A stretch of DNA of 64,000 nt from Escherichia coli (lineage in GTDB: Bacteria; Pseudomonadota; Gammaproteobacteria; Enterobacterales; Enterobacteriaceae): assembly GCF_044324785.1 (NCBI RefSeq), contig NZ_CP172127.1. One strand, 5' to 3'. The stretch's first letter is position 1, and every line of letters starts with the position of its first letter. The notes below the pieces were generated by a model. The model did not search any database. It was not told the origin of the DNA and was given only the letters and a program-made list of their open reading frames with translations. The position numbers and the translations under genes were made by a program. This document shows positions 1,168-18,339 of the stretch, piece after piece.

Positions 1168-2307
1168 TTAGTACAGAGAGTGGGTGTTACGTTCAATATC
1201 TTCTTTGGTGATACGACCGAACATTTTCCAGTAACACCAGGCGGTGTAGAGCAGAATGATCGGTACCAGAACCACCGCAACCCAGGTCATGACGTTAAGT
1301 GTCAGCTGGCTGGAAGTTGCATCCCACATTGTCAGACTTGCGTTCATCATGGTGCTGGACGGCATCACAAACGGGAACATTGCAATACCGGCAGTCAGGA
1401 TGATGCAGGCCAGCGTCAGGGAGGAGAACACAAACGCCCACGCCGCTTTATCCATACGTGCAGTCAGAATGGTCAGCAGTGGCAGAACCACACCCAGTGC
1501 CGGAATAGCCCACAGAATCGGCGTGTTGTTGAAGTTCACCAACCATGCGCCAGCTTCACGAACCACTTCTTTATTCAACGGGTTAGAGGCTGCGTAATGG
1601 TCCATTGTCGATTTCACGACATAACCATCGATACCGTACATCACCCATACGCCAGCCAGTGCGAAGCAGACCAGTGTCACCAGTGCCGCCACCTGAGCCG
1701 TTGCACGGGTACGCAGGTGCAGTTCGCCCACGGTACGCATTTGCAGATAGGTTGCGCCCTGAGTAATGATCATCCCTACGCTCACCACGCCAGCCAGCAG
1801 GCCGAACGGGTTAAGCAGCTGGAAGAAGTTACCGGTGTAGTACAGACGCAGATATTCATCAACGTTGAACGGTACGCCCTGCAACAGGTTACCGAACGCC
1901 ACACCAATCACCAGCGGCGGAACGAAGCTACCAATGAAGATGCCCCAGTCCCACATGTTACGCCAGCGGGTTTCTTCAATCTTGGAGCGGTAGTCAAAAC
2001 CGACCGGACGGAAGAACAAAGACGCCAGCACGAGGATCATCGCCACATAGAAGCCGGAGAACGCAGCGGCATAGACCATCGGCCAGGCAGCAAAGAGTGC
2101 GCCGCCCGCGGTGATCAGCCAAACCTGGTTACCGTCCCAGTGTGGAGCAATGGAGTTAATCATAATTCGACGCTCGGTGTCGTTACGACCGAGGAAACGG
2201 GTGAGCATGCCCACCCCCATGTCGAAACCGTCAGTGACTGCAAAACCAATCAGCAGAACGCCAACCAGCAGCCACCAGATAAAACGCAATACTTCATAAT
2301 CGATCAT
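1168..2307 (-). CDS. cydB: Cytochrome bd-I ubiquinol oxidase subunit II
   Basis: 379 aa polytopic membrane ORF immediately downstream of cydA. Confidence 0.97.
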   Translation of the reverse strand: MIDYEVLRFIWWLLVGVLLIGFAVTDGFDMGVGMLTRFLGRNDTERRIMINSIAPHWDGNQVWLITAGGALFAAWPMVYAAAFSGFYVAMILVLASLFFRPVGFDYRSKIEETRWRNMWDWGIFIGSFVPPLVIGVAFGNLLQGVPFNVDEYLRLYYTGNFFQLLNPFGLLAGVVSVGMIITQGATYLQMRTVGELHLRTRATAQVAALVTLVCFALAGVWVMYGIDGYVVKSTMDHYAASNPLNKEVVREAGAWLVNFNNTPILWAIPALGVVLPLLTILTARMDKAAWAFVFSSLTLACIILTAGIAMFPFVMPSSTMMNASLTMWDATSSQLTLNVMTWVAVVLVPIILLYTAWCYWKMFGRITKEDIERNTHSLY

Positions 2308-2322
2308 TTGACGACTCCTGTC

Positions 2323-3891
2323 TTAGCGTGCCGGCTGAGTAGTCGTGGAAGACTGCTCAAAGTGATAGCGACCGGTTTTCAGGCTGCTTGGGCCGAGGCG
2401 TGCAAACTTGAACATTAAGAACAATTCTGCCACCAGGAACAGGGTATACAGGCCGCAAATCAGCACCATTGAGAAGATGAGGTCGCCTGCGGTCAGTGAC
2501 GAGTTCGCCACAGCTGTCGGCAGCACTTCACCGATAGCCCACGGTTGGCGGCCATATTCAGCCACAAACCAGCCCGCTTCTACAGCAATCCACGGCAGCG
2601 GAATACCGTACAGCGCGGCGCGCAGCAGCCATTTTTTCTCGCCAATGCGGTTGCGGATGACACTCCAGAAAGAGAGCGCGATGATTGCCAGCAGCAGGAA
2701 GCCACACGCCACCATGATACGGAACGCGAAGTACAGCGGCGCTACACGTGGAATGGAGTCTTTGGTTGCCTGTTGAATCTGCGCTTCAGTTGCATCCGCC
2801 ACGTTTGGCGTATAGCGTTTCAGCAGCAGACCGTAACCGAGGTCTTTCTTCATGCTATTGAACTGATCACGAACCGCCTGGTCGGTAGAACCAGAACGCA
2901 GTTGCTCGAGCAGAGAGTACGCCTTCATCCCGTTACGAATGCGTTCTTCATGCTGCACCATCAGTTCTTTCAGGCCGATAACTGGAGTATCCACGGAACG
3001 CGTTGCAATGATGCCCAGCGCGTAAGGGATCTGGATCGCAAATTTGTTCGTCTCCTCTTCCTGATCAGGAATGCCGAACAGAGTAAAGGCAGCAGGCGCA
3101 GGTTGCGTTTCCCACTCGGCTTCAATAGCAGCCAGTTTGGTTTTCTGCACGTCGCCCATTTCGTAGCCGGATTCATCACCCAGAACAATAACAGACAGAA
3201 CGGCAGCCATACCGAAGCTGGCAGCGATAGCAAAGGAGCGTTTAGCGAAGGCGAAGTCACGACCTTTCAGCATATACCATGCGCTGATACCGAGGATGAA
3301 CATCGCGCCAGTCACATAACCAGACGCTACAGTGTGAACGAATTTCACCTGAGCAACCGGGTTAAGCACCAGCTCGGAGAAGCTCACCATCTCCATACGC
3401 ATAGTTTCAAAGTTGAAATCGGATGCGATTGGGTTTTGCATCCAGCCGTTCGCAACCAGAATCCACAGTGCGGACAGGTTTGAACCGAGCGCCACCAGCC
3501 AGGTGACACACATATGCTGAACTTTACCCAGACGATCCCAACCGAAGAAGAACAGACCTACAAAGGTGGATTCGAGGAAGAAGGCCATCAGACCTTCGAT
3601 TGCCAGCGGCGCACCGAAGATATCCCCTACATAGTGGGAATAGTAAGACCAGTTAGTCCCGAACTGGAACTCCATGGTCAGACCGGTAGCCACACCCAGA
3701 GCGAAGTTGATACCAAACAACTTGCCCCAGAACTTGGTCATATCTTTATAAATCTGTTTGCCGGAAAGGACGTAGACCGTTTCCATAATGGCCAGCAGGA
3801 ACGCCATACCGAGCGTCAGTGGCACAAAAAGGAAGTGGTACATCGCGGTCAAGGCAAACTGTAAGCGCGACAGTTCGACTATATCTAACAT
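2323..3891 (-). CDS. cydA: Cytochrome bd-I ubiquinol oxidase subunit I
   Basis: ORF-track frame 2323-3894 (MMLDIVELS...); start placed at the second Met ([12 protein letters not shown]...) to give the 522 aa expected for CydA. Confidence 0.96.
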
Positions 3892-4228
3892 CATGACTCC
3901 TTGCTCATCGCATGAAGACTCCGAGAGTGAACCCCGTTAGAAAGGGTCACACGCATGCCCCAATACAAAATTATTTGCTCGCCTCTATCGTTGCCATTTC
4001 ATCAAAAGAGGAAAAGACAATGATAAAAAAGTTACAAATATGTTAATGAATAAACCAAATTGATCCCGTAATTATATTACGCCGCAAAATCCTTACAATA
4101 AACAGGTTTTTATTGAGCAAATTTGCATTTTTCGACAGTGATCAATTTATAGCGAAATTGTCACGACATCACCAATTTGATCTACGACAATTTATCGTGT
4201 TTTGCAGATTTTTTTCAAGAATTAAAAA

Positions 4229-4242
4229 TTGATTTATATCAA
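4229..4242 (-). promoter_or_regulatory. Perfect FNR-type box TTGAT-N4-ATCAA in the cydAB upstream regulatory region
   Basis: TTGATTTATATCAA read directly in the AT-rich region upstream of cydA; cydAB is a known FNR/ArcA-controlled operon. Confidence 0.5.
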
Positions 4243-4696
4243 AATCAGCCAAATATGTTAATTATGTATAAACCATAGATCATTGGTAATTTTATTGTTA
4301 ATTTATTGTGAAATATTTATGCAACACAATTATTACAATGAAAAAGTATAGATAAAAAACCAGTGTTTTATTTAACAGAACCGCCCTATCCACTTTTTAT
4401 AATACCAATTGATTAGAGTAGCCAATTTGTTGCTATTTTACATAACATATTTTTATCAAAGTTAATTGATTGTTGCCTTTATGAGCACCGACCGTAAGCC
4501 CGTTATGTTATTGTTTCATTAGTAATAATCACTTAAATGTATCGATAAAACAGGTATGACTTAGCGGGAGTGATTGTTTCTGAGTGAACAGAGGACACTT
4601 TCGCCTGATAAATGAAAAATGAGCGATTTTTGCAAGTTAGTTTTTCTATAGCCGAGTACGCTCAGCGCCTCGCTTGATTACAATGAGGTTGCTGCT

Positions 4697-5641
4697 ATGA
4701 GTCCTGATAATATCGGTTCGGCTGTCAATCGCTTCTTAGGTTGGCCATCTAATGATCCTCTAAAAACAGATAACGAATCAATGACATCACCCGTGACTGT
4801 GCAGGTAATAAAGATGATTGCCGCCATCCTTGACCCACATCGGATAGTCGTTGGAATCGATACACTTTATACAACGCAGCGCGAAACATTTACCTCAGAG
4901 AGTCAACAGCTCATTGAATCAGCATTGCAAACACTTCATGTGATGAATTTAAATAACCTGGAAACAAATCTCGATGAGGAAGGTCACTATCTGGCTTTTG
5001 GATATAACGTTGACACTCCTGACAGAATAACCGTTTCTGCTTATAATGAAAAAAAGCCTGGCTGCTATGGTCAATGTCTTTTAATACAGGATGACGAAAC
5101 AGACTTATTTAACCTGATAAAAGTTAAAATTTTTGAAACCAGGCATAATTATGTCGCTCAATTGATGAGCGATCCGGAATTTATGTTCAAATTTAGTTAT
5201 AGCGCTCAACAAAATAGATTAGAACCTCATCTTCTGGTTCCCACTTATTTCCCTCTAAAAACAAACGAACCGGTTACGCAAGAGGATGTACTGTTACTTT
5301 ATCGTTTCTTTAAAATGGATGGTGATTTTAATATATTAACATCAGATGAATACATGAGTATCATGACACCTCTGATGAAGTGTGAGCGCAGCATCCACGA
5401 CCACAACAGGTATGTGACGGGCAAAGATACCCTTCTTCTGGACTATCCTCCTTCTGGTAACCAGATATATTTCCATATTTTTCCTGACGAATCAGCAACA
5501 CTAGTCCTTTATTTTTCAAACAATGACATTGAATGTTTCGTCTTTGAAAGAGATATTCCGAGCCAGTATCGCTTTTTCAAAATGTTTACCAATCTGGCAC
5601 TGGTTATTGATCAGTTAACCGATGCCAATCAAATACTTTAA
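4697..5641 (+). CDS. Hypothetical protein, 314 aa, AT-rich, no recognisable domain
   Basis: Long ORF with GAGG upstream of the ATG; markedly AT-rich versus flanking core genes; no signal peptide, P-loop or other motif I recognise. Confidence 0.6.
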   Translation: MSPDNIGSAVNRFLGWPSNDPLKTDNESMTSPVTVQVIKMIAAILDPHRIVVGIDTLYTTQRETFTSESQQLIESALQTLHVMNLNNLETNLDEEGHYLAFGYNVDTPDRITVSAYNEKKPGCYGQCLLIQDDETDLFNLIKVKIFETRHNYVAQLMSDPEFMFKFSYSAQQNRLEPHLLVPTYFPLKTNEPVTQEDVLLLYRFFKMDGDFNILTSDEYMSIMTPLMKCERSIHDHNRYVTGKDTLLLDYPPSGNQIYFHIFPDESATLVLYFSNNDIECFVFERDIPSQYRFFKMFTNLALVIDQLTDANQIL

Positions 5642-5721
5642 TTTTTATATATTCCCTGTGGCAAATATTGCTAAACAATGCCCGGGGATTAATTTTTATT
5701 ACTCACGGAAAGATTTAAATA

Positions 5722-6144
5722 ATGATCCCATCTCAAATCTCTTTCAACACCCTTCCTGTCAATGCAACATACGCTTCAGAGACAACAGTTGACACACAAA
5801 AATTCTCTGACATCCTCTACTCAGCGGGGTGTTCCCTAAAGGATCTGGCTTATCTGAGCAGATGTCTGGCATCAATACATCCGACTATCGCCAAAAACAT
5901 TTATGAAACAGAAAATCTCAGCGATCAAAAATTACTGCATATTGATTGCCGTAGTACAAATGAAATCAAGATAAATATCTTTTTTGGTCAACAACGAGAA
6001 GGATTAATTGAAATTAATTCTGACACTGTCATTTTTCCGATATTGTCTTCATTAATTGACTCCGCCATTTCTAAATTTCAACACCAAATCCCCGTTAACG
6101 GTTCAGTAAATCCTGACCTATTGTATGAGGATTATACTGATTAA
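5722..6144 (+). CDS. Hypothetical protein, 140 aa, AT-rich, no recognisable domain
   Basis: ORF 80 bp downstream of 4697-5641 on the same strand with the same AT-rich composition; Ser/Thr-rich N-terminus (MIPSQISFNTLPVNATYASETTV...). Confidence 0.5.
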   Translation: MIPSQISFNTLPVNATYASETTVDTQKFSDILYSAGCSLKDLAYLSRCLASIHPTIAKNIYETENLSDQKLLHIDCRSTNEIKINIFFGQQREGLIEINSDTVIFPILSSLIDSAISKFQHQIPVNGSVNPDLLYEDYTD

Positions 6145-6691
6145 ATCCCTCCTGTCGCGAAAAATGGCCTGCGTTATTGCCAGACGTAATAAAACTTTTG
6201 ATTAACGTTACTCGTACTGGTAGCACCTTCATGTACTTTTCTTTTTTACGAAAAATCAAAAGAGCTAACAAAGGTCATAATTCGCATGAATCATTAATTA
6301 TTTGTTATTTTCAACATTATTTTTACATTAAGCAGAGATGAATTGCAGTGAAATTCGACTTAACTTTTATGAAATGCATTTACTCATGGCTAAAGCCACG
6401 TCACAAAAATGCAAATTAGAAGTTGATCACAATTATCTCAATACATCAAATCAAGTTAATTTTAAAAATTTAACATTCATGACATTAGTTGACATAACAC
6501 ACTGAATTAAAATGATAATTTGAAAACACACTTTAAACAATCATTTCCCGAAAGACATTTTGAAAATAGATCAATTGCAACATTACGGTCAGATAAAGAC
6601 ACTCCTGTGATATTAAACCTGTGCCGTTATGAGCGGCCATAAATACGACGTGTGTAACTTATTTTACTCTCTGTCTTACAAAGGATTACCC

Positions 6692-7141
6692 ATGAAGAAA
6701 GCAACACTTGTGATTGGCGTTATTGGCGCGGACTGCCATGCAGTAGGCAATAAAGTTCTGGACCGAGTTTTTAGCAACCATGACTTCAGAGTTATTAATC
6801 TGGGCGTAATGGTCAGCCAGGACGAATATATTGATGCTGCCATTGAAACTGGTGCTGACGCGATTGTCGTCTCCTCTATCTATGGGCATGGCGATATCGA
6901 TTGTCTGGGCATGCGCGAACGCTGCATCGAGCGTGGGCTGGGTAACATCCTGCTCTATGTGGGCGGTAACCTGGTGGTCGGAAAACATGACTTCGCTGAC
7001 GTGGAAACCAAGTTCAAAGAGATGGGATTTGATCGCGTCTTTTCCCCAAGTCATGACTTAGAAGATGTTTGTCAGCTGATGGCCCACGATATCAACCAAC
7101 GTCATGACGTTGATACTCGCATTCTTGAAGAGGCAATCTGA
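6692..7141 (+). CDS. glmS: Glutamate mutase (methylaspartate mutase) S subunit, B12-binding
   Basis: [24 protein letters not shown]... carries the cobalamin-binding DxHxxG-type motif and resembles clostridial GlmS/MutS; start at the internal Met with an AGGA RBS rather than the ORF-track start at 6629. Symbol follows clostridial nomenclature, not glucosamine-6-P synthase. Confidence 0.9.
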
Positions 7142-8529
7142 TGCAAATCGTCTCTGTCGATATTGGATCGACGTGGACCAAAGCAGCCCTCTTCACCCGG
7201 GAGGGGGACGCGTTAACGTTGGTTAACCACGTTCTGACCCCAACCACCACCCATCATCTGGCGAAGGGGTTTTTCTCCAGCCTGGACCAGGTGTTAAACG
7301 TAGATAATGCCCTCCCCCTGTTAAACAGTGGTGAGGTTGCATTGAAGTATTCCTCCTCTGCCAAAGGTGGGCTGGCGGTTGCCGCAATGGGATTGGTGCC
7401 TTCTATCACCCTGGAAACCGCGAAAGTAACCGCTCACTCTGCGGGGGCTAAAATTGCGCAATATTACGCCTACAAGCTGAACCGCCGTGATATCCAGGCA
7501 CTGGAAGAAACGCAGCCCGATATTCTCTTGTTCACCGGCGGCACCGACGGCGGAGAAGAAAGCTACGGCCTGAATAACGCCCGTGTGCTGGCAGAATCCA
7601 AACTCGACTGCGCCATTATTTATGCCGGAAACCGGGATATTCAGGACGAGGTGCAGGAGATCCTAGGGCATAAAGACCTGACCATCGTCGACAATGTTCT
7701 GCCCGATCTTGACCATCCGAACCCTTTAGCTGCACGCCAGGCTATCTGCGACATATTCCTTAAACGCATCGTTAAAGGGAAAGGGCTGGATGTCGTTGTT
7801 GATAAAACAGGCGAAGAACCAATGCCGACACCGTGGACAGTCTTTGAACTGGTTAAGGCAATCAGTAATGTCGATCACAGCTGGAAAGAGTTCATGCTGA
7901 TCGACATGGGTGGCGCAACCACCGATGTCTATTCCGCCTGTGCCAACACGCTCTCGCCCGACACCGTTTTACACGGCGTACCGGAACCCTTCGTGAAACG
8001 GACGGTGGAAGGCGATCTGGGAATGCGCGTCTCGGCAATGGTGGTTGGTGAAAGTGCGAAAGAGTTAGTCAATGTGAATTTTGCTCAGCAACCCGCACAG
8101 CTGGACGCTTTTTATCATTACCTCCGTCATCTAGTCGCTCATCCCGACTACTTACCCGCGAATGCAGAAGAAAAATATTTCGATACCGTCCTGGCCGGAC
8201 TGTGTGTGGGTTATGCCACCGAAAGACATGCGGGCACCAAAAAAGAGGTCTGCACCTGCGTCGGCAATGTCGATTTACAGATGGGACGTGACCTGACAAC
8301 CGTGCGTAAAGTCGTCGGATCCGGCGGATGGCTCTCGCGTGCCAGTCAGTTCGATATGCATCACTGGTTGAAATACCGCGAGTTAAACGACGACGGTAAA
8401 CGCATTCTCTTACCGACCGAATTTGAATATTACCGCGATTCCCGGGGGCTATTACCACTGCTGGCAAACGTCGCCAGAGTCGATCCACTGGCCGCCGCGC
8501 GCACCAGTATTCAATGCTTAACCCTATAA
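7141..8529 (+). CDS. glmL: Glutamate mutase-associated GlmL/MutL-type protein (actin-like ATPase family)
   Basis: 462 aa ORF between the S and E subunit genes, as in clostridial glmS-glmL-glmE; N-terminus [18 protein letters not shown] typical of the sugar-kinase/actin fold; ATGA overlap with glmS. Confidence 0.8.
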   Translation: MQIVSVDIGSTWTKAALFTREGDALTLVNHVLTPTTTHHLAKGFFSSLDQVLNVDNALPLLNSGEVALKYSSSAKGGLAVAAMGLVPSITLETAKVTAHSAGAKIAQYYAYKLNRRDIQALEETQPDILLFTGGTDGGEESYGLNNARVLAESKLDCAIIYAGNRDIQDEVQEILGHKDLTIVDNVLPDLDHPNPLAARQAICDIFLKRIVKGKGLDVVVDKTGEEPMPTPWTVFELVKAISNVDHSWKEFMLIDMGGATTDVYSACANTLSPDTVLHGVPEPFVKRTVEGDLGMRVSAMVVGESAKELVNVNFAQQPAQLDAFYHYLRHLVAHPDYLPANAEEKYFDTVLAGLCVGYATERHAGTKKEVCTCVGNVDLQMGRDLTTVRKVVGSGGWLSRASQFDMHHWLKYRELNDDGKRILLPTEFEYYRDSRGLLPLLANVARVDPLAAARTSIQCLTL

Positions 8530-8547
8530 CAATTAAGGCTGCAATCA

Positions 8548-9993
8548 ATGGAACTTCGAAATAAGAAATTAACCCATGACGAATTCATGACCGAGCGGCA
8601 ACAGGTACTGAAAACCTGGGAAACCGGCAAGGATGTTGAAAACTTTGAAGATGGCGTTAAATACCAACAAACCATTCCTGAGCATAAACGCTTCTCTCTT
8701 GCGCTGTTGAAAGCAGACAAGGAAGGTAAAACCCTTAGCCAACCGCGCGCAGGTGTGGCGCTGATGGACGAACACATCGAACTACTGAAAACACTACAAG
8801 AAGAGTGCGATCTGCTGCCGAGCACCATCGATGCATATACCCGTCTGAATCGGTACGAAGAAGCGGCTGTAGGGATTAAAAAATCCATCGAAGCCGGAAC
8901 CTCTAAACTGAACGGTTTACCGGTAGTTAACCACGGCGTCGCAGCTTGCCGTCGCCTCACCGAAACTTTGCAAAAACCGCTACAGATCCGCCACGGCACG
9001 CCAGATGCGCGTCTGCTGGCTGAAATCTCGATGGCCAGCGGCTTTACCAGTTATGAAGGCGGCGGCATTTCCTACAATATTCCGTATGCCAAGCGCGTAA
9101 CGCTGGAAAAATCGATCCGCGACTGGCAGTACTGCGACCGTTTAATGGGGATGTATGAAGAACACGGGATCCGCATCAACCGCGAACCGTTTGGCCCACT
9201 AACGGGTACGCTGATCCCGCCGTTTATCTCGCACTCTATCGCGATAATCGAAGGATTACTGGCGCTGGAACAGGGTGTGAAATCTATCACCGTTGGTTAT
9301 GGACAGGTCGGCAGCCTGACGCAGGATGTTGCGGCGATCCAGTCTCTGCGTGAACTTGCACATGAATACTTTCAGAGCTATGGCTATACCGACTATGAAT
9401 TAAGTACCGTGTTTCACCAGTGGATGGGCGGCTTTCCGGAAGACGAATCGAAAGCGTTCGCTATTATCTCCTGGGGCGCAGCCGTCGCGGGGATGTCTGG
9501 TGCCACCAAAGTCATCACCAAAAGTCCGCACGAAGCCTGGGGTATCCCGACTGCCGCTGCCAACATTCAGGGGCTGAAAGCCTCCCGCCAGATGCTCAAC
9601 ATGGTCAATGAGCAGAAATTCCCGCCGTGCCCTGCGGTTGAACTGGAAATTGAACTGATTAAGAGCGAGGTTCGCGCGGTACTGAATAAAGTGTTCGAAC
9701 TGGGTAATGGTGATATTGCGCGCGGTACGGTGCTGGCATTTGAAGCGGGCGTACTGGATGTGCCGTTTGCGCCAGCCGCCTGCAACGCGGGCAAAATTCT
9801 TCCGGTCCGTGACAACACCGGCGCAATACGCGTACTGGAAGCCGGAGCCGTTCCATTGCCAAAAGATATTCTCGACCTCCACCACGATTACGTTGCGGAA
9901 CGCGCACGCTTTGAAGGACGCCAACCGACATTCCAGATGGTTGTAGATGACATCAATGCTGTATCCCACAGTAAATTAATAGGAAGACCATAA
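8548..9993 (+). CDS. glmE: Glutamate mutase (methylaspartate mutase) E subunit
   Basis: 481 aa ORF, size and position of the catalytic E subunit; adjacent to the S subunit and methylaspartate ammonia-lyase. Confidence 0.9.
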   Translation: MELRNKKLTHDEFMTERQQVLKTWETGKDVENFEDGVKYQQTIPEHKRFSLALLKADKEGKTLSQPRAGVALMDEHIELLKTLQEECDLLPSTIDAYTRLNRYEEAAVGIKKSIEAGTSKLNGLPVVNHGVAACRRLTETLQKPLQIRHGTPDARLLAEISMASGFTSYEGGGISYNIPYAKRVTLEKSIRDWQYCDRLMGMYEEHGIRINREPFGPLTGTLIPPFISHSIAIIEGLLALEQGVKSITVGYGQVGSLTQDVAAIQSLRELAHEYFQSYGYTDYELSTVFHQWMGGFPEDESKAFAIISWGAAVAGMSGATKVITKSPHEAWGIPTAAANIQGLKASRQMLNMVNEQKFPPCPAVELEIELIKSEVRAVLNKVFELGNGDIARGTVLAFEAGVLDVPFAPAACNAGKILPVRDNTGAIRVLEAGAVPLPKDILDLHHDYVAERARFEGRQPTFQMVVDDINAVSHSKLIGRP

Positions 9994-11234
9994 TGAAAAT
10001 AAAACAGGCTCTGTTCACCGCTGGCTACTCCTCATTCTATTTCGATGACCAGCAGGCGATAAAAAACGGAGCGGGTCATGACGGCTTTTTTTATACCGGG
10101 GAGCCAGTAACACAGGGGTTTAACGCCGTACGTCAGGCCGGGGAGTGCGTATCGGTACAGTTGATTCTGGAAAACGGCGCGGTCGCTGTAGGTGACTGTG
10201 CTGCCGTACAGTATTCCGGGGCAGGTGGTCGCGATCCACTGTTCCTCGCAGAGCACTTTATTCCGTTCCTCAACGACCATATTAAGCCATTACTGGTAGG
10301 CCGCGATGTAGATGCTTTCCTGCCGAATGCCCGTTTCTTCGACAAATTGCGTATTGACGGCAACTTGCTACATACCGCCGTACGCTACGGATTATCACAG
10401 GCGCTGCTTGATGCTACCGCGCTGGCAACCGGCCGTCTGAAAACTGAAGTGGTCTGTGATGAATGGCAGTTGCCACGCGTGGCGGAATCCATTCCATTAT
10501 TTGGTCAGAGCGGGGACGATCGATATATCGCCGTCGATAAGATGATCCTTAAGGGCATCGACGTGCTGCCCCATGCACTGATTAATAACGTCGAAGAGAA
10601 ACTGGGCTTTAAAGGTGAAAAACTGCGCGAATATGTCCGCTGGCTGTCGGATCGTATTCTGAGCAAGCGCACCAGCGCACGCTACCACCCTACCCTGCAC
10701 ATCGATGTATACGGCACTATCGGTCTGATCTTCGATATGGATCCGCTTCGCTGTGCGCAATACATCGCCAGCCTGGAAAAAGAAGCGCAAGGCCTGCCGC
10801 TCTACATTGAAGGGCCGGTCGATGCCGGTAACAAGACCGATCAAATTCGCCTGCTGACCGCGATTACCAAAGAGCTGACGCGCCTCGGTTCCGGCGTGAA
10901 AATTGTGGCCGATGAATGGTGTAACACCTACCAGGATATTGTTGATTTCACTGATGCCGCCAGTTGCCACATGGTGCAAATCAAAACCCCGGATCTGGGC
11001 AGTATTCACAACATCGTCGATGCAGTTCTTTATTGCAACAGCCACAGCATGGAAGCGTACCAGGGCGGCACCTGCAATGAAACTGATGTCAGTGCCCGCA
11101 CCTGTGTCCACGTCGCCCTTGCCGCTCGCCCCATGCGTATGCTGGTAAAGCCAGGGATGGGCTTTGACGAAGGCCTCGATATCGTCTTCAACGAAATGAA
11201 TCGTACTATCGCGCTGTTGCAGGCTAAGGATTAA
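9993..11234 (+). CDS. mal: 3-Methylaspartate ammonia-lyase (beta-methylaspartase)
   Basis: 413 aa enolase-superfamily-like ORF, 1-nt overlap with the glmE stop; size and context match methylaspartate ammonia-lyase. Confidence 0.88.
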   Translation: MKIKQALFTAGYSSFYFDDQQAIKNGAGHDGFFYTGEPVTQGFNAVRQAGECVSVQLILENGAVAVGDCAAVQYSGAGGRDPLFLAEHFIPFLNDHIKPLLVGRDVDAFLPNARFFDKLRIDGNLLHTAVRYGLSQALLDATALATGRLKTEVVCDEWQLPRVAESIPLFGQSGDDRYIAVDKMILKGIDVLPHALINNVEEKLGFKGEKLREYVRWLSDRILSKRTSARYHPTLHIDVYGTIGLIFDMDPLRCAQYIASLEKEAQGLPLYIEGPVDAGNKTDQIRLLTAITKELTRLGSGVKIVADEWCNTYQDIVDFTDAASCHMVQIKTPDLGSIHNIVDAVLYCNSHSMEAYQGGTCNETDVSARTCVHVALAARPMRMLVKPGMGFDEGLDIVFNEMNRTIALLQAKD

Positions 11235-11237
11235 CAA

Positions 11238-12608
11238 ATGGCTCGTTCTTTTAAAGTCTTATCGCCAACGGCAATCCTCGGGTATGGATTCCCGGAAGAG
11301 AGCTTCCGCAAAGCGATGGCAGAATCGCCCGATCTGATCGCCGTTGATGCAGGCTCTTCCGATCCAGGCCCCCACTACCTCGGGGCGGGCAAACCGTTTA
11401 CCGATCGCGCAGGGGTCAAGCGCGATCTGCGCTATATGATCACCGCAGGCGTTCAAAATAATATACCGGTGGTGATCGGAACGGCCGGCGGTTCTGGTGC
11501 CGCTCCACACCTGGAGTGGTGCCGAGAAATAATTCATGAGATTGCCCGGGAAGAGCACCTCTCGTTCTCGATGGCGCTGATCCCAGCAGACGTTGACAAA
11601 GCCATCGTCCACCAGGCGCTGGATAACGGCAAAATCACGGCGCTGGATTTTGTCCCGCCGTTAACCCACGACGCGATTGACGAAAGTACGTATATCGTCG
11701 CGCAAATGGGCATCGAACCCTTCCAGCGGGCGCTGAAAGAAGGCGCGCAAGTGGTGCTGGGCGGGCGCGCTTACGACCCGGCCTGCTTTGCTGCGCTACC
11801 GATCATGCAAGGCTTTGATGAAGGTCTGGCGCTGCATTGCGGGAAAATCCTTGAATGCGCGGCAATCGCCGCAACGCCCGGCTCAGGCTCTGACTGTGCG
11901 ATGGGCATCATTGATGACAACGGCTTTACGCTGAAGACATTTAATCCGAAGCGTAAATTTACCGAAACGTCAGCAGCTGCACACACACTGTATGAGAAAT
12001 CCGATCCCTACTTCCTGCCAGGACCTGGCGGCGTGTTGAACCTGAAAGGCTGCACATTTAAAGCGGTCAATGACGGCGAAGTGTACGTCAGCGGTTCTAA
12101 GCATGAAGAAACGCCGTATGCCCTGAAACTGGAAGGTGCGCGACGGGTGGGCTTCCGCTGTCTGACCATCGCCGGAACGCGCGACCCGATCATGATCGCC
12201 GGGATCGATAAAATCATCGATGAAGTCAAAACCAGCGTTTCGCGTAACCTGTCGCTCGACGATGACAGCATTCGCATCAATTTCCACCTGTACGGCAAAA
12301 ACGGGGTGATGGGCGACCATGAACCGATGCAAACTGCCGGGCATGAGCTGGGGATTGTCCTAGATGTAGTTGCACCGACCCAGGAAATTGCCAACAGCGT
12401 TTGCTCGCTGGTGCGCTCTACTATGCTGCACTACGGCTATGAAAACCGCATCGCTACCGCAGGCAACCTGGCGTTCCCGTTCTCCCCTTCTGATATCCAG
12501 GGCGGGCCAGTATACGAATTTTCCATATATCACCTGATTGAAGCCAACGACGCTCTGCGTTTTGATTTCCATATTGAACAGGTGACGCCAGAAGGAGTTC
12601 AGGCATGA
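11238..12608 (+). CDS. Uncharacterised protein, 456 aa (possibly AtuA/DUF1446-like)
   Basis: ORF 4 bp downstream of mal, same strand and GC content as the cluster; family assignment is from memory of architecture only. Confidence 0.7.
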   Translation: MARSFKVLSPTAILGYGFPEESFRKAMAESPDLIAVDAGSSDPGPHYLGAGKPFTDRAGVKRDLRYMITAGVQNNIPVVIGTAGGSGAAPHLEWCREIIHEIAREEHLSFSMALIPADVDKAIVHQALDNGKITALDFVPPLTHDAIDESTYIVAQMGIEPFQRALKEGAQVVLGGRAYDPACFAALPIMQGFDEGLALHCGKILECAAIAATPGSGSDCAMGIIDDNGFTLKTFNPKRKFTETSAAAHTLYEKSDPYFLPGPGGVLNLKGCTFKAVNDGEVYVSGSKHEETPYALKLEGARRVGFRCLTIAGTRDPIMIAGIDKIIDEVKTSVSRNLSLDDDSIRINFHLYGKNGVMGDHEPMQTAGHELGIVLDVVAPTQEIANSVCSLVRSTMLHYGYENRIATAGNLAFPFSPSDIQGGPVYEFSIYHLIEANDALRFDFHIEQVTPEGVQA

Positions 12609-12922
12609 AACAGTCAATTGTCTCACTGGCGCAAGTCATTCGTTCGAAAAATGCCGGACCTTACGAACTGGTTTTAGATATTTTATTTAAAACCAAAGAA
12701 AACTATGAGCGAGTTAAATCATCAGGGCAATTAACCCCAGAACTGATTGCGCGCTTATATCATGTTGAACCTGACTTTATTCACCGTATTGTCTGGTTTG
12801 ATCCTTCTAACGCAGTAAAAATCGTCATGCCACGAGATATTATCTCCGGGAATGTAGGTGACAATGATGTCTATGGTGCACAGCAACATGCACCTTTATT
12901 AAATATGAGTTTCGATTTGTAA
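12605..12922 (+). CDS. Uncharacterised small protein, 105 aa (possibly DUF4387-like partner)
   Basis: ORF overlapping the previous stop by 4 nt (translational coupling). Confidence 0.6.
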   Translation: MKQSIVSLAQVIRSKNAGPYELVLDILFKTKENYERVKSSGQLTPELIARLYHVEPDFIHRIVWFDPSNAVKIVMPRDIISGNVGDNDVYGAQQHAPLLNMSFDL

Positions 12923-13000
12923 AAATCCGAACATTTTTAGCCAACTGACATCCCGTCACTTATTGCAGTTCAACACTTCAGCTATTTGTAAGGTTGTAAT

Positions 13001-13040
13001 AGCAGGTAGATGCCTGAATCTCTATTCGGGCATCTACTTC
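13001..13040 (+). other. Stem-loop (GTAGATGCC...GGCATCTAC) between the enzyme genes and the symporter gene
   Basis: 9-bp perfect inverted repeat read directly, followed by a pyrimidine-rich stretch; possible internal terminator or attenuator. Confidence 0.3.
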
Positions 13041-13082
13041 TCCTGATTCTGATTTATCGCCGTGCACCTGATGGAGGAAAAA

Positions 13083-14363
13083 ATGAAGAAAATAAGTTTA
13101 ACCACGATGATTCTTTTGGCGCTGGTACTTGGAATGATTATCGGCGTAGTGCTCAATAACACTGCTTCACCGGAAACCGCAAAACTCTATGCGCAAGAAA
13201 TATCGATATTCACGACGATTTTCTTACGACTGATAAAAATGATTATCGCTCCGTTAGTGGTCTCTACCCTGGTGGTAGGTATAGCTAAAATGGGCGATGC
13301 CAAAGCCCTTGGTCGTATTTTTTCTAAAACACTCTTTTTATTTATTTGCGCCTCATTGCTGTCAATTGCCTTAGGCTTGATAACAGTAAATTTCTTCATG
13401 CCAGGCACAGGAATTAATTTTGTTGCACACGGAGCCGAAACCACCGGAGTGGTCGCGTCAGAACCCTTTACGCTAAAAGTATTTATTTCGCATGCTTTCC
13501 CCACCAGCATTGTCGATGCCATGGCGCACAATGAAATTTTGCAAATCGTGGTGTTCTCAATTTTCCTCGGCTGTAGCCTGACGGCGATTGGCGAGAAAGG
13601 CAGCGCCATCGTTCACGCCTTAGATTCGCTGGCACATGCCATGTTAAAGCTCACTGGCTACGTCATGCTCTTCGCTCCCCTGACCGTATTCGCTGCTATT
13701 TCAGCATTGATTGCTGAACGAGGACTGGCAGTTATGGTGAGCGCCGGGATCTTTATGGGTGAATTTTATTTCACCATGTTATTACTTTGGGTGCTGCTTA
13801 TCGGTCTGGCCATCGTTTATGTCGGCCCCTGCATCAGACGCCTGACCCGCGCCCTTTCGGAACCCGCCCTGCTGGCATTTACCACATCCAGTTCTGAAGC
13901 GGCTTTTCCGGGAACGCTTGAAAAACTGGAGCAATTTGGCGTTTCCCCCAAAATTGCCAGCTTTGTCTTACCCATTGGCTACTCATTTAATCTCGTTGGA
14001 TCAATGGCCTACTGCTCCTTCGCCACAGTTTTCATCGCCCAGGCCTGCAATATCCATTTATCCATCGGTGAGCAAATCACCATGCTGTTGATCCTGATGT
14101 TGACCTCGAAAGGAATGGCTGGCGTACCACGCGCCTCAATGGTGGTTATCGCCGCCACGCTCAACCAGTTCAATATTCCGGAAGCGGGGCTGATCTTGCT
14201 GATGGGCGTTGATCCGTTCCTTGATATGGGGCGTTCCGCGACAAACGTCATGAGCAACGCAATGGGCGCTGCGATGGTGAGTCGGTGGGAAGGCGAACAT
14301 TTCGGCGAGGGCTGTCGGGGTAAAGCATTAAAACCCAATGAATCGAACGTTGCTCTGCCCTGA
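13083..14363 (+). CDS. Dicarboxylate/amino acid:cation symporter (DAACS, GltP-like); likely glutamate uptake
   Basis: About 426 aa polytopic membrane protein; start placed at the ATG preceded by GGAGG (ORF track starts at 13062). Confidence 0.85.
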   Translation: MKKISLTTMILLALVLGMIIGVVLNNTASPETAKLYAQEISIFTTIFLRLIKMIIAPLVVSTLVVGIAKMGDAKALGRIFSKTLFLFICASLLSIALGLITVNFFMPGTGINFVAHGAETTGVVASEPFTLKVFISHAFPTSIVDAMAHNEILQIVVFSIFLGCSLTAIGEKGSAIVHALDSLAHAMLKLTGYVMLFAPLTVFAAISALIAERGLAVMVSAGIFMGEFYFTMLLLWVLLIGLAIVYVGPCIRRLTRALSEPALLAFTTSSSEAAFPGTLEKLEQFGVSPKIASFVLPIGYSFNLVGSMAYCSFATVFIAQACNIHLSIGEQITMLLILMLTSKGMAGVPRASMVVIAATLNQFNIPEAGLILLMGVDPFLDMGRSATNVMSNAMGAAMVSRWEGEHFGEGCRGKALKPNESNVALP

Positions 14364-14470
14364 GGGGGATCTTAAGCAATCAGAAGCCAATGACTACGCA
14401 TTTTTATAAGCCGGATCATGAAGTTAGACGGCAATTAAGTAACACTAACGTTTAAGGTGAAAAGTGAAAT

Positions 14471-16123
14471 ATGTCCAAACCATTTATCTGGCAAGAACCG
14501 TTTCTACAAAATAAAGACGGTACAGAATATACATTAATTAGCGATCAACATATTACAGTAACGGAATTAGACGGCGAAGAAGTGATAAAAATCGCTCCTG
14601 AAGCATTAACGCTGCTTGCCCGGCAGGCATTTTATGAAGCCTCTTTTTTCTTACGTTCCGCTCATTTGCAACAGGTCGCCAGCATTCTTAACGATCCGCA
14701 GGCCAGTAGTAATGATAAATACGTTGCGTTGCAGTTATTACGTAATGCTGAAGTCTCAGCAAAAGGGGTATTACCCAACTGTCAGGATACCGGCACCGCA
14801 ACTATTGTTGCCAGTAAAGGGCAACAGATATGGACCGGAGGTAACGACGCCGAAGCCTTAAGCAAAGGCATTTACACCACTTTTCAGGAAAATAATCTGC
14901 GCTTTTCACAAAATGCGCCACTGGATATGTATACCGAAGTCAATACGCAAACCAATCTACCGGCGCAGATTGATATCAGCGCCGTCGCTGGTGATGAGTA
15001 CCATTTTCTCTGTATTAATAAAGGGGGCGGCTCTGCCAATAAAGCCGCGCTTTATCAGGAAACAAAATCCCTATTGCAACCAGAAAAACTGACCGCATTT
15101 TTAATCGAAAAAATGAAATCGCTGGGCACCGCTGCCTGCCCGCCTTACCACATCGCCTTTGTCGTCGGAGGGCTTTCAGCCGATCAAACCTTAAAAGTTG
15201 CCAAGCTGGCCTCAACGAAATATTACGACAATTTGCCCACCAGCGGAAACGCGCAGGGACAAGCATTCCGTGATATTGAGTTGGAAAAAGCGTTGCTCAA
15301 CGCCAGTCAGCAATTTGGTATTGGTGCGCAATTTGGGGGTAAATATTTCGCTCATGATATTCGCGTCATTCGTCTGCCGCGTCACGGTGGCTCTTGCCCG
15401 ATAGCTATGGCGCTCTCCTGTTCTGCCGATCGCAATATCAAAGCAAAAATTAACAAGCACGGTATCTGGCTGGAAAAACTCGTACACAATCCGGGGCAAT
15501 ATATTCCAGCCTCACTGCGGGAAGAAAATCACCCGCAACATGTACAGCTGGATCTAAACCGTCCGTTGCGTGACGTGATGCAGGATCTCGCCAGATTACC
15601 GGTAGGCACCCGCGTGTCGTTAAATGGTCCCATCGTAGTGGCGCGCGATATCGCCCACGCCAAAATAAAAGCGCGGCTGGATAGCGGCGAACCGATGCCG
15701 GATTACCTGAAGCATCATATTGTCTATTACGCTGGCCCGGCGAAAACACCTGAGAACATGGCCTGCGGTTCACTGGGTCCAACCACGGGTGGACGAATGG
15801 ACGGTTATGTCGATACCTTCCAGGCGGTTGGCGGCAGTCTGGTGATGTTATCGAAAGGTAACCGCAGCCAGCAGGTCACCGATGCCTGTCACAAACATGG
15901 CGGCTTCAATCTGGGAAGTATTGGCGGTGCAGCAGCGTTACTGGCGCAAGAATATGTCAAAAGTCTGCGTTGCCTGGAATACCCGGAGCTGGGTATGGAA
16001 GCGGTGTGGATGATGGAAGTGGAAAATCTGCCCGCATTCATCCTGGTAGATGATAAAGGCAATAATTTCTTTAGTCAGTTTGAGCAGCAACACCGCTGCG
16101 CCAGTTGCCCTGCGGGACATTAA
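14471..16123 (+). CDS. Class I (Fe-S) fumarate hydratase paralogue; candidate mesaconase
   Basis: 550 aa ORF co-linear with the FumA/FumB family ([11 protein letters not shown]..., GSCP and CxxC motifs); located inside the methylaspartate cluster. Confidence 0.9.
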
Positions 16124-16132
16124 GGAAAATGA

Positions 16133-16735
16133 ATGGAAGCGCGAATTTCAACTGAACGGCATGTGCAGCGCCAGCAGAAATTGAAGGAACAGGTCGATAC
16201 GCGCGTCGCGGCGGCGATAGAGAAAAAAGGGATCTTGATTGTTTTCACCGGCAACGGCAAAGGGAAATCCACTGCCGCGTTTGGTACTGTGACGCGCGCG
16301 GTGGGTCATGGCAAAACGGTGGGGGTTGCGCAGTACATCAAGGGGCAATGGGACAACGGCGAATACAACCTTCTCCAGCCGCTGGGGGTTGAGTTTCATA
16401 TTATGGGAACCGGTTTTACCTGGGAGACACAGAACCGGCAAGCGGATATCGACGCGGCGAAAGAGGTCTGGTCGGAAAGCAAACGGATGCTGGCTGACAA
16501 GCGTTACGACTTAGTGGTGCTTGATGAGCTGACCTATATGCTGGCTTACCATTATCTGGACACCGAAGAAGTGATCGCTTCTCTGCAAAACCGCCCGGCA
16601 CAACAAAGTGTCATTGTCACCGGACGCGGTTGCCACAGTCAGATATTAAAAATGGCGGATACGGTCAGCGAAATCCGCCCCGTCAAACATGCTTTTGATA
16701 ACGGCATTCAGGCGCAGCCGGGTATCGACTGGTAA
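16133..16735 (+). CDS. Corrinoid (cob(I)alamin) adenosyltransferase, BtuR/CobA family
   Basis: 200 aa ORF with P-loop VFTGNGKGKSTAAFG; strongly resembles BtuR; would supply adenosylcobalamin to glutamate mutase. Confidence 0.9.
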   Translation: MEARISTERHVQRQQKLKEQVDTRVAAAIEKKGILIVFTGNGKGKSTAAFGTVTRAVGHGKTVGVAQYIKGQWDNGEYNLLQPLGVEFHIMGTGFTWETQNRQADIDAAKEVWSESKRMLADKRYDLVVLDELTYMLAYHYLDTEEVIASLQNRPAQQSVIVTGRGCHSQILKMADTVSEIRPVKHAFDNGIQAQPGIDW

Positions 16736-16738
16736 TAA

Positions 16739-16765
16739 CTGCGCCTGGCATCCCGCCAGGCGCAG
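16739..16765. terminator. Bidirectional stem-loop between convergent adenosyltransferase and LysR genes
   Basis: CTGCGCCTGGCATCCCGCCAGGCGCAG palindrome read directly. Confidence 0.5.
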
Positions 16766-16768
16766 GTT

Positions 16769-17674
16769 TTACATCTCCTGCGGTACGACCGATTTCGCCA
16801 GCAACCATTCACGAAATTGCTGCAAGTGCGGCGAGTCAGACTTCTCTTCCTGCCACGTCATAATAAAACGATTACCGGTACGAATAGGCACATCACAGGG
16901 AATCACCATATCGCCACTATCCAAATCATGTTGAATAGCGAACCGTGGTAACAGCGCCACGCCGAGATTAGAGCGCACGGCGGCAATCAGCATTGAAAGC
17001 AAATCGAAACGTGGTCCGTTGTTGACCAGCGGACTGCTAACGCCAGATAAGGCAAACCACTCTTCCCAGCCAGTAATACGGGTACTTTGATGCAGAAGTG
17101 GTAACTCTGTAAGCAGTTCTGCCACTGACAGTTTTTGATCGGACATTGCAAGCAAACTGCCGCTGCATACCGGCAAAATCTCTTCTTCAAAGAGATATTC
17201 TACTTCCGCCCAGGGCGCGCAAAAATTTTCGCGCATAATGACAGCATCGTACTCCCGATTAAGAAAATCGCCGTTATTAGCTAAAGAGTGAATATTAACA
17301 ATAATATCGGGATGTAACTTTGTGAATTCATGTAAATTTGGGATTAACCAGTGGGTACTAAACGTAGGATTCACGGCAAGTTCAATAACCTGAACCGTAG
17401 GCTGCCAGGTCATAATGGTATTGGTATCGCGTTCCAGCTTATTTAATGTTTCTTTTACTATCCCCAGGTAATACTTCCCTGCATCATTAAGAAAAATACG
17501 TTTTTTAGAGTGTGAAAATAACGGAGTATGTAAAAATTCCTCCAGCGCACTCACTTGTCTGAATACTGCACTTTGGGTTAACGCTAACTCCTCTGCCGCT
17601 CTGGTATAACTTTCATGACGTGCGACGACCTCAAAAGTCACCAGCAGTTCCGTTTTAGGTATTTTCCCTCGCAT
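16769..17674 (-). CDS. LysR-family transcriptional regulator
   Basis: 301 aa ORF with N-terminal HTH (...YTRAAEELALTQSAVFRQVSALE...) and LTTR-type C-terminal domain. Confidence 0.9.
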   Translation of the reverse strand: MRGKIPKTELLVTFEVVARHESYTRAAEELALTQSAVFRQVSALEEFLHTPLFSHSKKRIFLNDAGKYYLGIVKETLNKLERDTNTIMTWQPTVQVIELAVNPTFSTHWLIPNLHEFTKLHPDIIVNIHSLANNGDFLNREYDAVIMRENFCAPWAEVEYLFEEEILPVCSGSLLAMSDQKLSVAELLTELPLLHQSTRITGWEEWFALSGVSSPLVNNGPRFDLLSMLIAAVRSNLGVALLPRFAIQHDLDSGDMVIPCDVPIRTGNRFIMTWQEEKSDSPHLQQFREWLLAKSVVPQEM

Positions 17675-17943
17675 AATGCCGTCCCTTAAAAATAGTTTAA
17701 ACCATCAAAAATACATTACTTATTACGAAGTAATGGTAACCAAAGCAGCAATAAATAATTTATAAGAATCATGATTGACATTTATAACCCAGTAAGCCTG
17801 GCGTGACAAATATCTTAATCAGATAATAATAATCCGAAAAGCACAGCGCCTTTCGAATTATCCGGAATCACATTAAGTGAAAATTATTAAATTGATATCA
17901 TTTATCATATCTGTGGATATTATGATAAACAATCAACAAAGAT

Positions 17944-18187
17944 TTTATTTTTGATTTATAGCATATCCCTCTAAGAATTTTTGCGATGCTGCAATATCCG
18001 GGGTAAAGACCCGATCCTGGCTGACAAATGGCACGACTTGACGATAAGCGGTGAACATCGCTTTTGTTGATTTACTTAACGCTACGGTCAAACGCTGGGA
18101 AGCCAGTGCATCAGGTAACGATTCGAAATTCGCCGTCGTTCTTATTCGTGGCTTGCGGTCGGTTGCGGCAATCCACAGTGGCTGTGG
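17944..18187 (-). pseudogene. Possible 3' gene remnant (about 80 codons open, no convincing start)
   Basis: Manual minus-strand translation: ...PLWIAATDRKPRIRTTANFESLPDALASQRLTVALSKSTKAMFTAYRQVVPFVSQDRVFTPDIAASQKFLEGYAINQK*; only an internal ATG; sits at the island/sucD boundary. Confidence 0.25.
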
Positions 18188-18236
18188 TCATGCAGTCAAG
18201 CCAGCGGTCAGATTTCGACCGTGGTTAACGTTTAAG

Positions 18237-18339
18237 GCATAAAAAAGGCCATCATACGATGGCCAACCATGTCGAAACCGACAGCCCTTCGCCATTCCTG
18301 TAGAGGGAAGCGGCGAGGGCTATTTCTTATTACAGATAT
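18237..18339 (-). ncRNA. sdhX: sucD 3'UTR-derived sRNA SdhX (RybD) with intrinsic terminator
   Basis: Directly after the sucD stop on the minus strand; ends in hairpin GGCCATCGTATGATGGCC plus T-tract (18241-18264); identity with SdhX is from memory of the K-12 3'UTR. Confidence 0.4.

Follow-up and report, generated by a model that had tools for sequence, protein, structure and literature searches.

A perfect FNR box in a genus-typical Escherichia cydAB control region most likely has no direct part in expression of the adjacent gene island

The DNA considered here (the window, 64,000 nucleotides) is an interval of the Escherichia coli chromosome, with 100% identity to strain N3 and 98.6% to O157:H7. 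Rightward from cydA, the gene order is ORF1, ORF2, glmS, glmL, glmE, methylaspartate ammonia-lyase, an AtuA-like gene, DUF4387, a transporter, class I fumarase (fumD), cobO, and a LysR regulator, followed by sucD. cydA (minus strand) and ORF1 (plus strand) are divergent, their start codons being 802 bp apart. For cydA, the start in RefSeq is the second ATG (window position 3891); the ORF list has an in-frame ATG at 3894. GC content is 50–56% in cydA, 36% in 3901–4200 and 26% in 4201–4500. The original prediction described an AT-rich control region between cydA and a divergent ORF at 4697, and this is what is found: the region has a GC content of 26–36%, and ORF1 is annotated in RefSeq. The main features are:

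1168–2307, minus strand: cydB, beside cydA
2323–3891, minus strand: cydA (cytochrome bd-I subunit I) by RefSeq annotation; WP_000884361.1, an accession common to BL21
3895–4537, minus strand: genus-typical Escherichia cydAB control region, with Fnr-1, Fnr-2, and three ArcA-box clusters
4538–6285, plus strand: AT-rich orphan module (159-bp upstream region, ORF1, and ORF2), 1.75 kb, GC 35–40%
4697–5641, plus strand: ORF1, 314 aa, ECs0767 in Sakai, RefSeq hypothetical protein
5722–6144, plus strand: ORF2, 140 aa, ECs0766 in Sakai, RefSeq hypothetical protein; orphan
6286–6691, plus strand: glmS upstream region, 78% identical to that of E. whittamii

The sucD–cydA interval has at least four alternative occupants in Escherichia:

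mngR-mngA-mngB, in K-12 and BL21, with mngB co-directional with cydA
a TPR protein, in TPR-type E. coli
ORF1/2 plus the methylaspartate cluster (the window type, here called the island)
ORF1 plus a 258-aa protein, without the methylaspartate cluster, in E. albertii-type loci

Sites were compared across 18 Escherichia and Citrobacter loci, six of them Citrobacter, and further loci came from a scan taking one genome per species. These comparisons show what the motifs are, their orthology by position, where the break points lie, and that the sites do not depend on the neighboring genes. The methylaspartate cluster directly abuts cydA, without ORF1/2, in three cases (E. whittamii, Escherichia sp. 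E1V33, and Citrobacter amalonaticus); in C. sedlakii and another C. amalonaticus it is mngB that does so, in the K-12 fashion.

A crude scan for sigma-70-like promoters gave five matches in 3895–4696, all facing cydA; none facing 4697 was found anywhere in that region. The cydA-proximal promoters, FNR-type boxes, and leader are:

4229–4242, no strand assigned: Fnr-1 operator of cydAB P1, TTGATTTATATCAA, a perfect TTGAT-N4-ATCAA centered at –53.5
4177–4190, no strand assigned: Fnr-2 orthologue, TTGATCTACGACAA, a weaker FNR-like box centered at –1.5 of the predicted P1 start
4189–4218, minus strand: predicted cydAB P1, TTGAAA-18-TAAATT, with its start at ~4182, 7 nt downstream
4071–4098, minus strand: sigma-70-like promoter TTGTAA-16-TATAAT (10/12 matches), facing cydA
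3895–3966, minus strand: cydA leader, the 72 nt next to the start codon, invariant, with an allele junction at its upstream end (~3966/3967)

The 4071–4098 promoter lies within the block most conserved across genera. It is probably the proximal cydAB promoter P2; the promoters P1–P5 of cydAB and the Fnr-1/Fnr-2 arrangement are reportedly described in Cotter 1997 and Govantes 2000. With TTGATTTATATCAA placed at –53.5, the P1 start falls at window position 4182 and the weaker box at –1.5, and the predicted 5′ UTR is 291 nt in the window and 288 nt in K-12. The predicted position of P1 agrees with K-12, where cydAB has an FNR ChIP-seq peak with the site at –53.5 (Myers 2013, PMC3688515). The 72-nt leader is 97–100% identical over the 18 loci and 100% identical in five of the six Citrobacter loci, where the cydA coding sequence is only ~88% identical. 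A structured RNA in the leader was considered, but the fold is no better than that of shuffled sequences (z = 0.22), and an Rfam search of 3700–6800 gave no match.

The perfect FNR box was correctly predicted: TTGATTTATATCAA is read at 4229–4242, with 10 of 10 consensus positions, and is the sole perfect TTGAT-N4-ATCAA box within the 64-kb window. When five E. coli strains are aligned upstream of cydA, the K-12-type orthologue (BL21, TTGATAAATATCAA) falls in the same columns. The box is perfect in every one of the 18 loci, representing two genera, although the flanking bases and the N4 spacer vary; it always starts 332–335 nt upstream of the first cydA ATG, and it is retained beside at least four different upstream neighbors (mngB, TPR protein, ORF1, and glmS). 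By alignment, then, TTGATTTATATCAA is the positional orthologue of the K-12 cydAB Fnr-1 operator. Half sites of the form TTGAT and ATCAA are commoner in AT-rich sequence, and the box could in principle be a chance match without function, but perfect boxes are expected at only 0.002 per composition-matched shuffle of 3895–4696, and the orthologous K-12 site is bound in ChIP-seq (PMC3688515); conservation across the 18 loci refutes this explanation, to which we give practically no credence.

Fnr-2 is the nearer of the two boxes to cydA, with 52 bp between their centers in all loci compared. It reads TTGATCTACGACAA in the window and TTGATCGAGAACAA in BL21. The A-to-G change at 4186, which gives the half site GACAA, was considered as an island-specific weakener of repression and rejected, as it also occurs in Citrobacter, E. 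albertii, and TPR-type E. coli; because it is present in Citrobacter and in TPR-type E. coli, the GACAA/AACAA variation is not specific to the island.

The 18-bp matrix used to score ArcA boxes, in which two TGTTA-like repeats are spaced by 11 bp, derives from 112 Park 2013 boxes, those of cydA excluded. Seven boxes of at least 14 bits are found in the cydAB control region, against 0.17 expected in shuffles:

4029–4046, plus strand: ArcA box AAGTTACAAATATGTTAA, 20.5 bits (14.9 in BL21), orthologue of the K-12 ChIP-seq region cydA3
4255–4338, plus strand: ArcA-box cluster, orthologue of K-12 ArcA region cydA2
4255–4272, 4284–4301, and 4295–4312, plus strand: boxes of this cluster, 16.5, 17.3, and 20.9 bits
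4321–4338, minus strand: further box of this cluster, 14.3 bits
4442–4459, minus strand: distal ArcA box, 17.6 bits, positional analogue of K-12 cydA1
4459–4476, plus strand: distal ArcA box, 14.2 bits, positional analogue of K-12 cydA1

The K-12 regions cydA1–3 are those found by ArcA ChIP-seq at cydAB (Park 2013 Tables S2–S4, PMC3798270). The AAGTTACAAATATGTTAA box is found in all 18 loci; the cluster orthologous to cydA2 scores 13.0, 10.6, and 12.5 bits in BL21. The distal pair has the orientation of cydA1 and lies at nearly the same distance, but the sequences are not homologous: cydA1 is in K-12-specific DNA, ~25 bp further out than the analogous box of the window. The minus-strand box at 4442–4459 is kept in every Escherichia locus compared except BL21, including strain HH97, which has a K-12-type proximal allele.

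Where the island DNA begins can be read from the break points with other loci. The stretch 3895–4537 is ~90% identical over ~640 bp to four loci, none of which has ORF1/2, and all sampled Escherichia types but the mng one (K-12/BL21) share 3895–4532/4537; the break point with TPR-type and E. whittamii-type loci is at 4532–4537. Homology to Citrobacter runs from 3895 to ~4272 only, and that to K-12 fades at ~4270–4310. On the glmS side, E. whittamii matches 6286–6694 at 78%, and Citrobacter matches only a short element (6536–6579) at 89–97%. This pattern indicates that 3895–4537 is core cydAB control DNA and that the ORF1/2 module is an indel in an older divergent intergenic region between cydA and glmS. 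Because the control region is ~90% orthologous in strains and species without ORF1/2 or without the whole island, it is, as judged from these alignments, not interrupted by the island.

Island-specific DNA starts at ~4538, 296 bp beyond the perfect FNR box. The orphan module is missing from E. whittamii, from Escherichia sp. E1V33, and from Citrobacter; there, glmS comes directly after the cydA control region. Its patchy distribution (1138 of 5426 E. coli genomes) and deviant composition are those of a mobile island. No flanking repeats or other mobile-element signatures were found at the edges of 4538–6285, however, and there are no mobility genes between cydA and sucD. Within E. coli, the module (1138/5426) and the methylaspartate cluster (1135/5426) co-occur, but across the genus they are separable: ORF1 is found without the cluster in E. 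albertii-type loci, and the cluster without ORF1/2 in E. whittamii and Citrobacter. By these comparisons, the island is a composite of an orphan two-gene module and the methylaspartate/FumD cluster.

The orphan genes themselves have few relatives. dN/dS is 0.29–0.43 for ORF1 and 0.27–0.34 for ORF2, and neither contains a Pfam family; relatives of both are confined to Escherichia and Shigella, with only 5 clusters for ORF1. No remote homologues of ORF1 were found among 1.84 billion representatives, only fragments of ORF1 itself, and its AlphaFold2 model (pLDDT 49) is too poor for a structure search. A literature search by the locus tags ECs0766/0767 and Z0897–0899 found no mention of either gene. 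Since ORF1 is under constraint by its dN/dS, annotated in RefSeq, and conserved, we regard it as a real gene, although it is apparently frameshifted in E. albertii NBRC 107761 and Escherichia sp. MOD1-EC7003. On present comparisons, both ORFs are fast-evolving orphan genes.

Immediately upstream of ORF1 is a block that is conserved in an alignment of nine ORF1-bearing loci, E. albertii included:

4613–4696, plus strand: conserved block of ~85 bp, with a Shine–Dalgarno sequence (GAGG) at 4685–4688

Given this block and the GAGG site, ORF1 probably brings its own expression signals, and we presume that 4613–4696 holds its promoter and 5′ UTR. No convincing sigma-70 promoter for ORF1 was found; the best match in a relaxed scan is 8/12, and its –35 element is not conserved. 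A sigma-28 candidate, CAAGTTA-N11-GCCGAGTA at 4632–4658, was rejected: a shuffled region yields 3.25 matches of equal quality by expectation, and several loci have a changed –10 element. A sigma-54 promoter around TTGCA at 4630 lacks the –24 GG (by eye), and for the inverted repeat TGAGCG...CGCTCA upstream of ORF1, considered as an RNA structure, compensatory changes are not seen.

The remainder of the island is well described. The methylaspartate/FumD glutamate-fermentation cluster is known from O157:H7, and its genes were not inducible in the laboratory (Kronen and Berg 2015, PMC4682846). Kato and Asano are also said to have described the methylaspartate (mesaconate) pathway in 1997. GC content is normal in the metabolic genes, which occupy the same locus in Citrobacter. 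The first of them, glmS, is 2.4 kb from the perfect FNR box and has an AT-rich upstream region of its own (547 bp), in which a motif scan found no FNR box; other elements there are:

6311–6328, minus strand: ArcA box, 19 bits
6536–6579: Citrobacter-conserved element, 89–97% identity

It had been proposed that the cydAB regulatory region is shared with the island, and that insertion of the island could have put its genes under anaerobic control or altered regulation of cydAB. The first of these ideas survives in part: oxygen-responsive control DNA does lie near the island (296 bp from the box to its edge), but direct sharing finds no support in the form of a plus-strand promoter. The other two find no support in the sequence comparisons, which give some evidence against them. 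Anaerobic control of the island genes is not indicated, as 4538–4696 has no FNR box with one mismatch or fewer, no ArcA box of 8 bits or more, and no promoter facing the island; nor is a change to cydAB, whose control region (3895–4537) is intact and ~90% identical in loci without the island. The causal interpretation is unsupported on several counts: the canonical Fnr-1 box is kept whatever the neighbor, and the control region is orthologous in loci without the island; the sequence between the junction and ORF1 lacks sites, nothing promoter-like points toward 4697, and the metabolic genes are 2.4 kb away; and the implied reference is inverted, since it is the K-12 upstream region that is a diverged, replaced allele. 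The box does not move in any of the Escherichia and Citrobacter loci, and there is no sign that the island has borrowed or disturbed it. Our preferred reading, to which we assign a probability of about 0.75, is that 3895–4537 is native DNA that was not inserted into, and that its FNR box most likely has no direct part in expression of the island.

Under this reading three things are inferred: that the proteins bind in this strain, where the promoters lie, and that the region is not used divergently. The region would act on cydA in the manner known from K-12. FNR would bind at 4229–4242 (Fnr-1) and 4177–4190 (Fnr-2), the two together repressing P1 under anoxia, and under microaerobiosis ArcA-P would bind the clusters at 4029–4046, 4255–4338, and 4442–4476 and relieve H-NS silencing of the AT-rich DNA. 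The orphan module would bring its own 159-bp upstream sequence and ribosome-binding site, and the methylaspartate cluster its own 547-bp upstream region.

Control in both directions, with the cydAB FNR and/or ArcA sites also regulating a divergent promoter of ORF1 (and ORF2) and the orphans being oxygen-responsive, has some points in its favor. The genes are divergent, with start codons only 802 bp apart, and transcription of ORF1 may begin within the shared region. As for the distal ArcA boxes, they lie ~60–95 bp from the module junction and ~220–255 bp from the ORF1 start codon, within ~150–250 bp of any ORF1 promoter, near enough for ArcA or H-NS to affect ORF1; ArcA action needs neither a fixed position nor a fixed orientation (PMC3798270). 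The intergenic region between cydA and ORF1 is also similar in length in E. albertii-type loci (802 vs. 805 bp) and 85% identical, against 64% for ORF1 itself. No plus-strand sigma-70-like promoter is found in 3895–4696, however; 455 bp separate the FNR box from the start codon of ORF1; and the sites are unchanged where the divergent gene is absent, as in K-12 with its co-directional mngB. The sole –10-like hexamer near the distance for class II FNR activation (TATAAA, 4267–4272) was rejected as a candidate: it is off by 2–3 bp, is not conserved in other alleles, and has no ORF within the next 420 nt. Overall, we consider such dual use of the sites unlikely.

A chromatin-level connection is also conceivable. 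GC content is 26–40% without a break from 3900 to 6600, and the AT-rich module and glmS upstream region could extend an H-NS domain, altering both the silencing of cydAB in air and its need for ArcA. In K-12, cydAB is described as being repressed by H-NS and anti-repressed by ArcA (Govantes 2000, as cited in PMC3798270), and the failure to induce the glutamate-fermentation genes in the laboratory (PMC4682846) would fit silencing. Against this, the idea rests on inference, and TPR-type and E. whittamii-type loci are similarly AT-rich beyond 4537, such that the module may change nothing; an extended H-NS domain seems to us quite improbable as an influence on cydAB, and native control DNA beside an independently equipped module is still the preferred account.

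The K-12 and window control regions are evidently two different alleles. Window and BL21 are 99–100% identical through cydA and the first 72 nt upstream, after which identity drops to 61, 85, and 70% in successive 100-bp segments, with a sharp junction at ~3966/3967, which is ~72 nt from the cydA start. Identities in the 375 bp that precede cydA are:

K-12-type vs. window allele: 77.9%
window allele vs. E. albertii, E. whittamii, and three other Escherichia lineages: 94–99%
window allele vs. Citrobacter: 82–87%
K-12-type allele vs. every sampled Escherichia allele: 77–79%
K-12-type allele vs. every sampled Citrobacter allele: 78–82%

From this pattern, the window region is the ancestral type and the K-12 region the replaced one. 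The distal part of the K-12 allele, which includes ArcA site cydA1, has weak homology (70–79%) to the distal region of Citrobacter, and strain HH97 is a recombinant of K-12-type and window alleles. Counted by identity band, ~3733 complete genomes (~69%) have the K-12-type allele and ~1692 the window type.

Both alleles keep the plan of FNR and ArcA sites, which points to a conserved regulatory logic; the strength of the sites and the distal ArcA region are not the same in the two, so different microaerobic expression is possible. As a tentative proposal, one we would rate somewhat below even odds, there are two ancient cydAB control alleles, the K-12 one a horizontal replacement and the window one genus-typical, which may set different microaerobic levels of cytochrome bd-I. 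Cytochrome bd-I is reported to contribute to gut colonization, and to our knowledge the K-12 allele underlies every classical study of cydAB regulation. Regulatory models from K-12 need checking on the window allele for O157:H7, strain 042, and other carriers, and the replacement of the cydAB allele is the only point here that deserves an experiment.

Neither the FNR box nor the ArcA sites nor the glutamate-fermentation cluster is new to the literature. What changes is the position of the island edge, now placed at ~4538, and the division of the island into an orphan module and a cluster whose position next to cydA is shared by Citrobacter. A way into the silence of the cluster in the laboratory might be its own upstream region, which is AT-rich and has an ArcA box, and not the cydAB FNR site.

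Compared with the known O157:H7 cluster, that of the window is identical in genes and gene order, from glmS to the LysR regulator, and in its location between sucD and cydA. We find it in 1135 of 5426 complete E. coli genomes, against a published frequency of 26.5% (PMC4682846). The published account of the O157:H7 cluster omits the two orphan genes and the relation to the cydAB control region; the separability of module and cluster is added here.

Compared with the K-12 control region, that of the window is similar in the distance of Fnr-1, the position of Fnr-2 52 bp downstream, the AT-rich DNA, the predicted positions of P1- and P2-like hexamers, the ArcA boxes orthologous to cydA3 and cydA2, and a distal box oriented as cydA1. 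It differs in sequence (78% identity over the alignable 375 bp, and no homology beyond ~4270–4310), in its higher-scoring ArcA boxes (20.5 vs. 14.9 and 20.9 vs. 12.5 bits), in the Fnr-2 half site (GACAA, where K-12 has AACAA), and in its neighbor, the divergent ORF1 in place of the co-directional mngB.

Horizontal regulatory switching of E. coli intergenic regions is said to have been described by Oren et al. in 2014. It is in any case a known phenomenon in this species (Piggy; Thorpe et al. 2018, PMC5890482), and a literature search found no report of it at cydAB. The cydAB case has what such switching leaves behind: a nearly identical core gene (cydA, 98.8% between window and BL21 in coding sequence), two deeply diverged intergenic alleles (78%), and a sharp junction. 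It differs from the known pattern in two respects: it is the allele of the laboratory reference that stands apart, and both alleles retain the architecture of transcription-factor sites.

The sucD-cydA interval (3895-18340) is occupied by alternative gene sets in the loci compared (L002, L003, L007, L014, L017, and L020):

mngRAB
a TPR protein
ORF1 with a 258-aa putative outer-membrane protein
the methylaspartate cluster, alone or together with ORF1 and ORF2

The mng state is seen in Escherichia as well as in Citrobacter, and so is the methylaspartate state; the locus is a long-lived replacement hot spot. Marks of mobile elements were not found, whether as flanking repeats around 4538-6285 or as mobility genes between cydA and sucD.

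ORF1 and ORF2 (4697-6144) are orphans confined to Escherichia (compared with L007 9880-10824, L011, and L023). They are fast-evolving, with 64% amino acid identity to the E. albertii-type copy vs. 99.4% for cydA, and dN/dS values of 0.27-0.43; the 85 bp 5' of ORF1 are more conserved than the ORF1 protein. ORF1 has an apparent frameshift in E. albertii NBRC 107761 and in Escherichia sp. MOD1-EC7003. Copies 97% (ORF1) and 98% (ORF2) identical to those of E. coli are found on contig DXKH01000067.1 (L016) of a “Citrobacter sp.” MAG, which is probably a mis-binned E. coli contig.

On the other side of these genes, the cydAB control region is divided as follows:

3895-3966, minus strand: cydA leader, 72 nt adjoining the start codon; 97-100% identity over the 18 Escherichia and Citrobacter loci
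3967-4310: diverged stretch, with its junction at ~3966/3967; the other allele is in L002 and L004

There are two deeply diverged alleles of this region in E. coli, with 77.9% identity over 375 bp between the window type and the K-12 type, while cydA itself is 98.8% identical. Compared with all sampled Escherichia species and Citrobacter, the K-12 type is the outlier; it is found in ~3733 complete genomes, and the window type in ~1692. Strain N3 is identical to the window across 3895-6285; RefSeq annotates two genes of this strain, nadA and ybgE of the cyd operon, as frameshifted pseudogenes (L001 4621-5663 and 12854-13146).

Of the six Citrobacter loci, five carry the leader at 100% identity, although the cydA coding sequence is only ~88% identical. 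The leader contains the mini-ORFs ATGCGATGA and ATGAGCAAGGAGTCATGA, overlapping the ribosome-binding site and start codon. Folding of 3895-3966 as RNA gave no significant structure (z = 0.22), and the same 72 nt had no match in Rfam.

To the right of ORF2, the methylaspartate cluster gene glmS is preceded by an upstream region with two features inside it:

6286-6691: glmS upstream region, 27% GC
6311-6328: strong ArcA box, 19 bits
6536-6579: element of 30-44 bp, 89-97% identity to Citrobacter amalonaticus

Laboratory induction of the glutamate-fermentation cluster has not succeeded (PMC4682846). For this cluster, the element shared with C. amalonaticus is a candidate operator or promoter.
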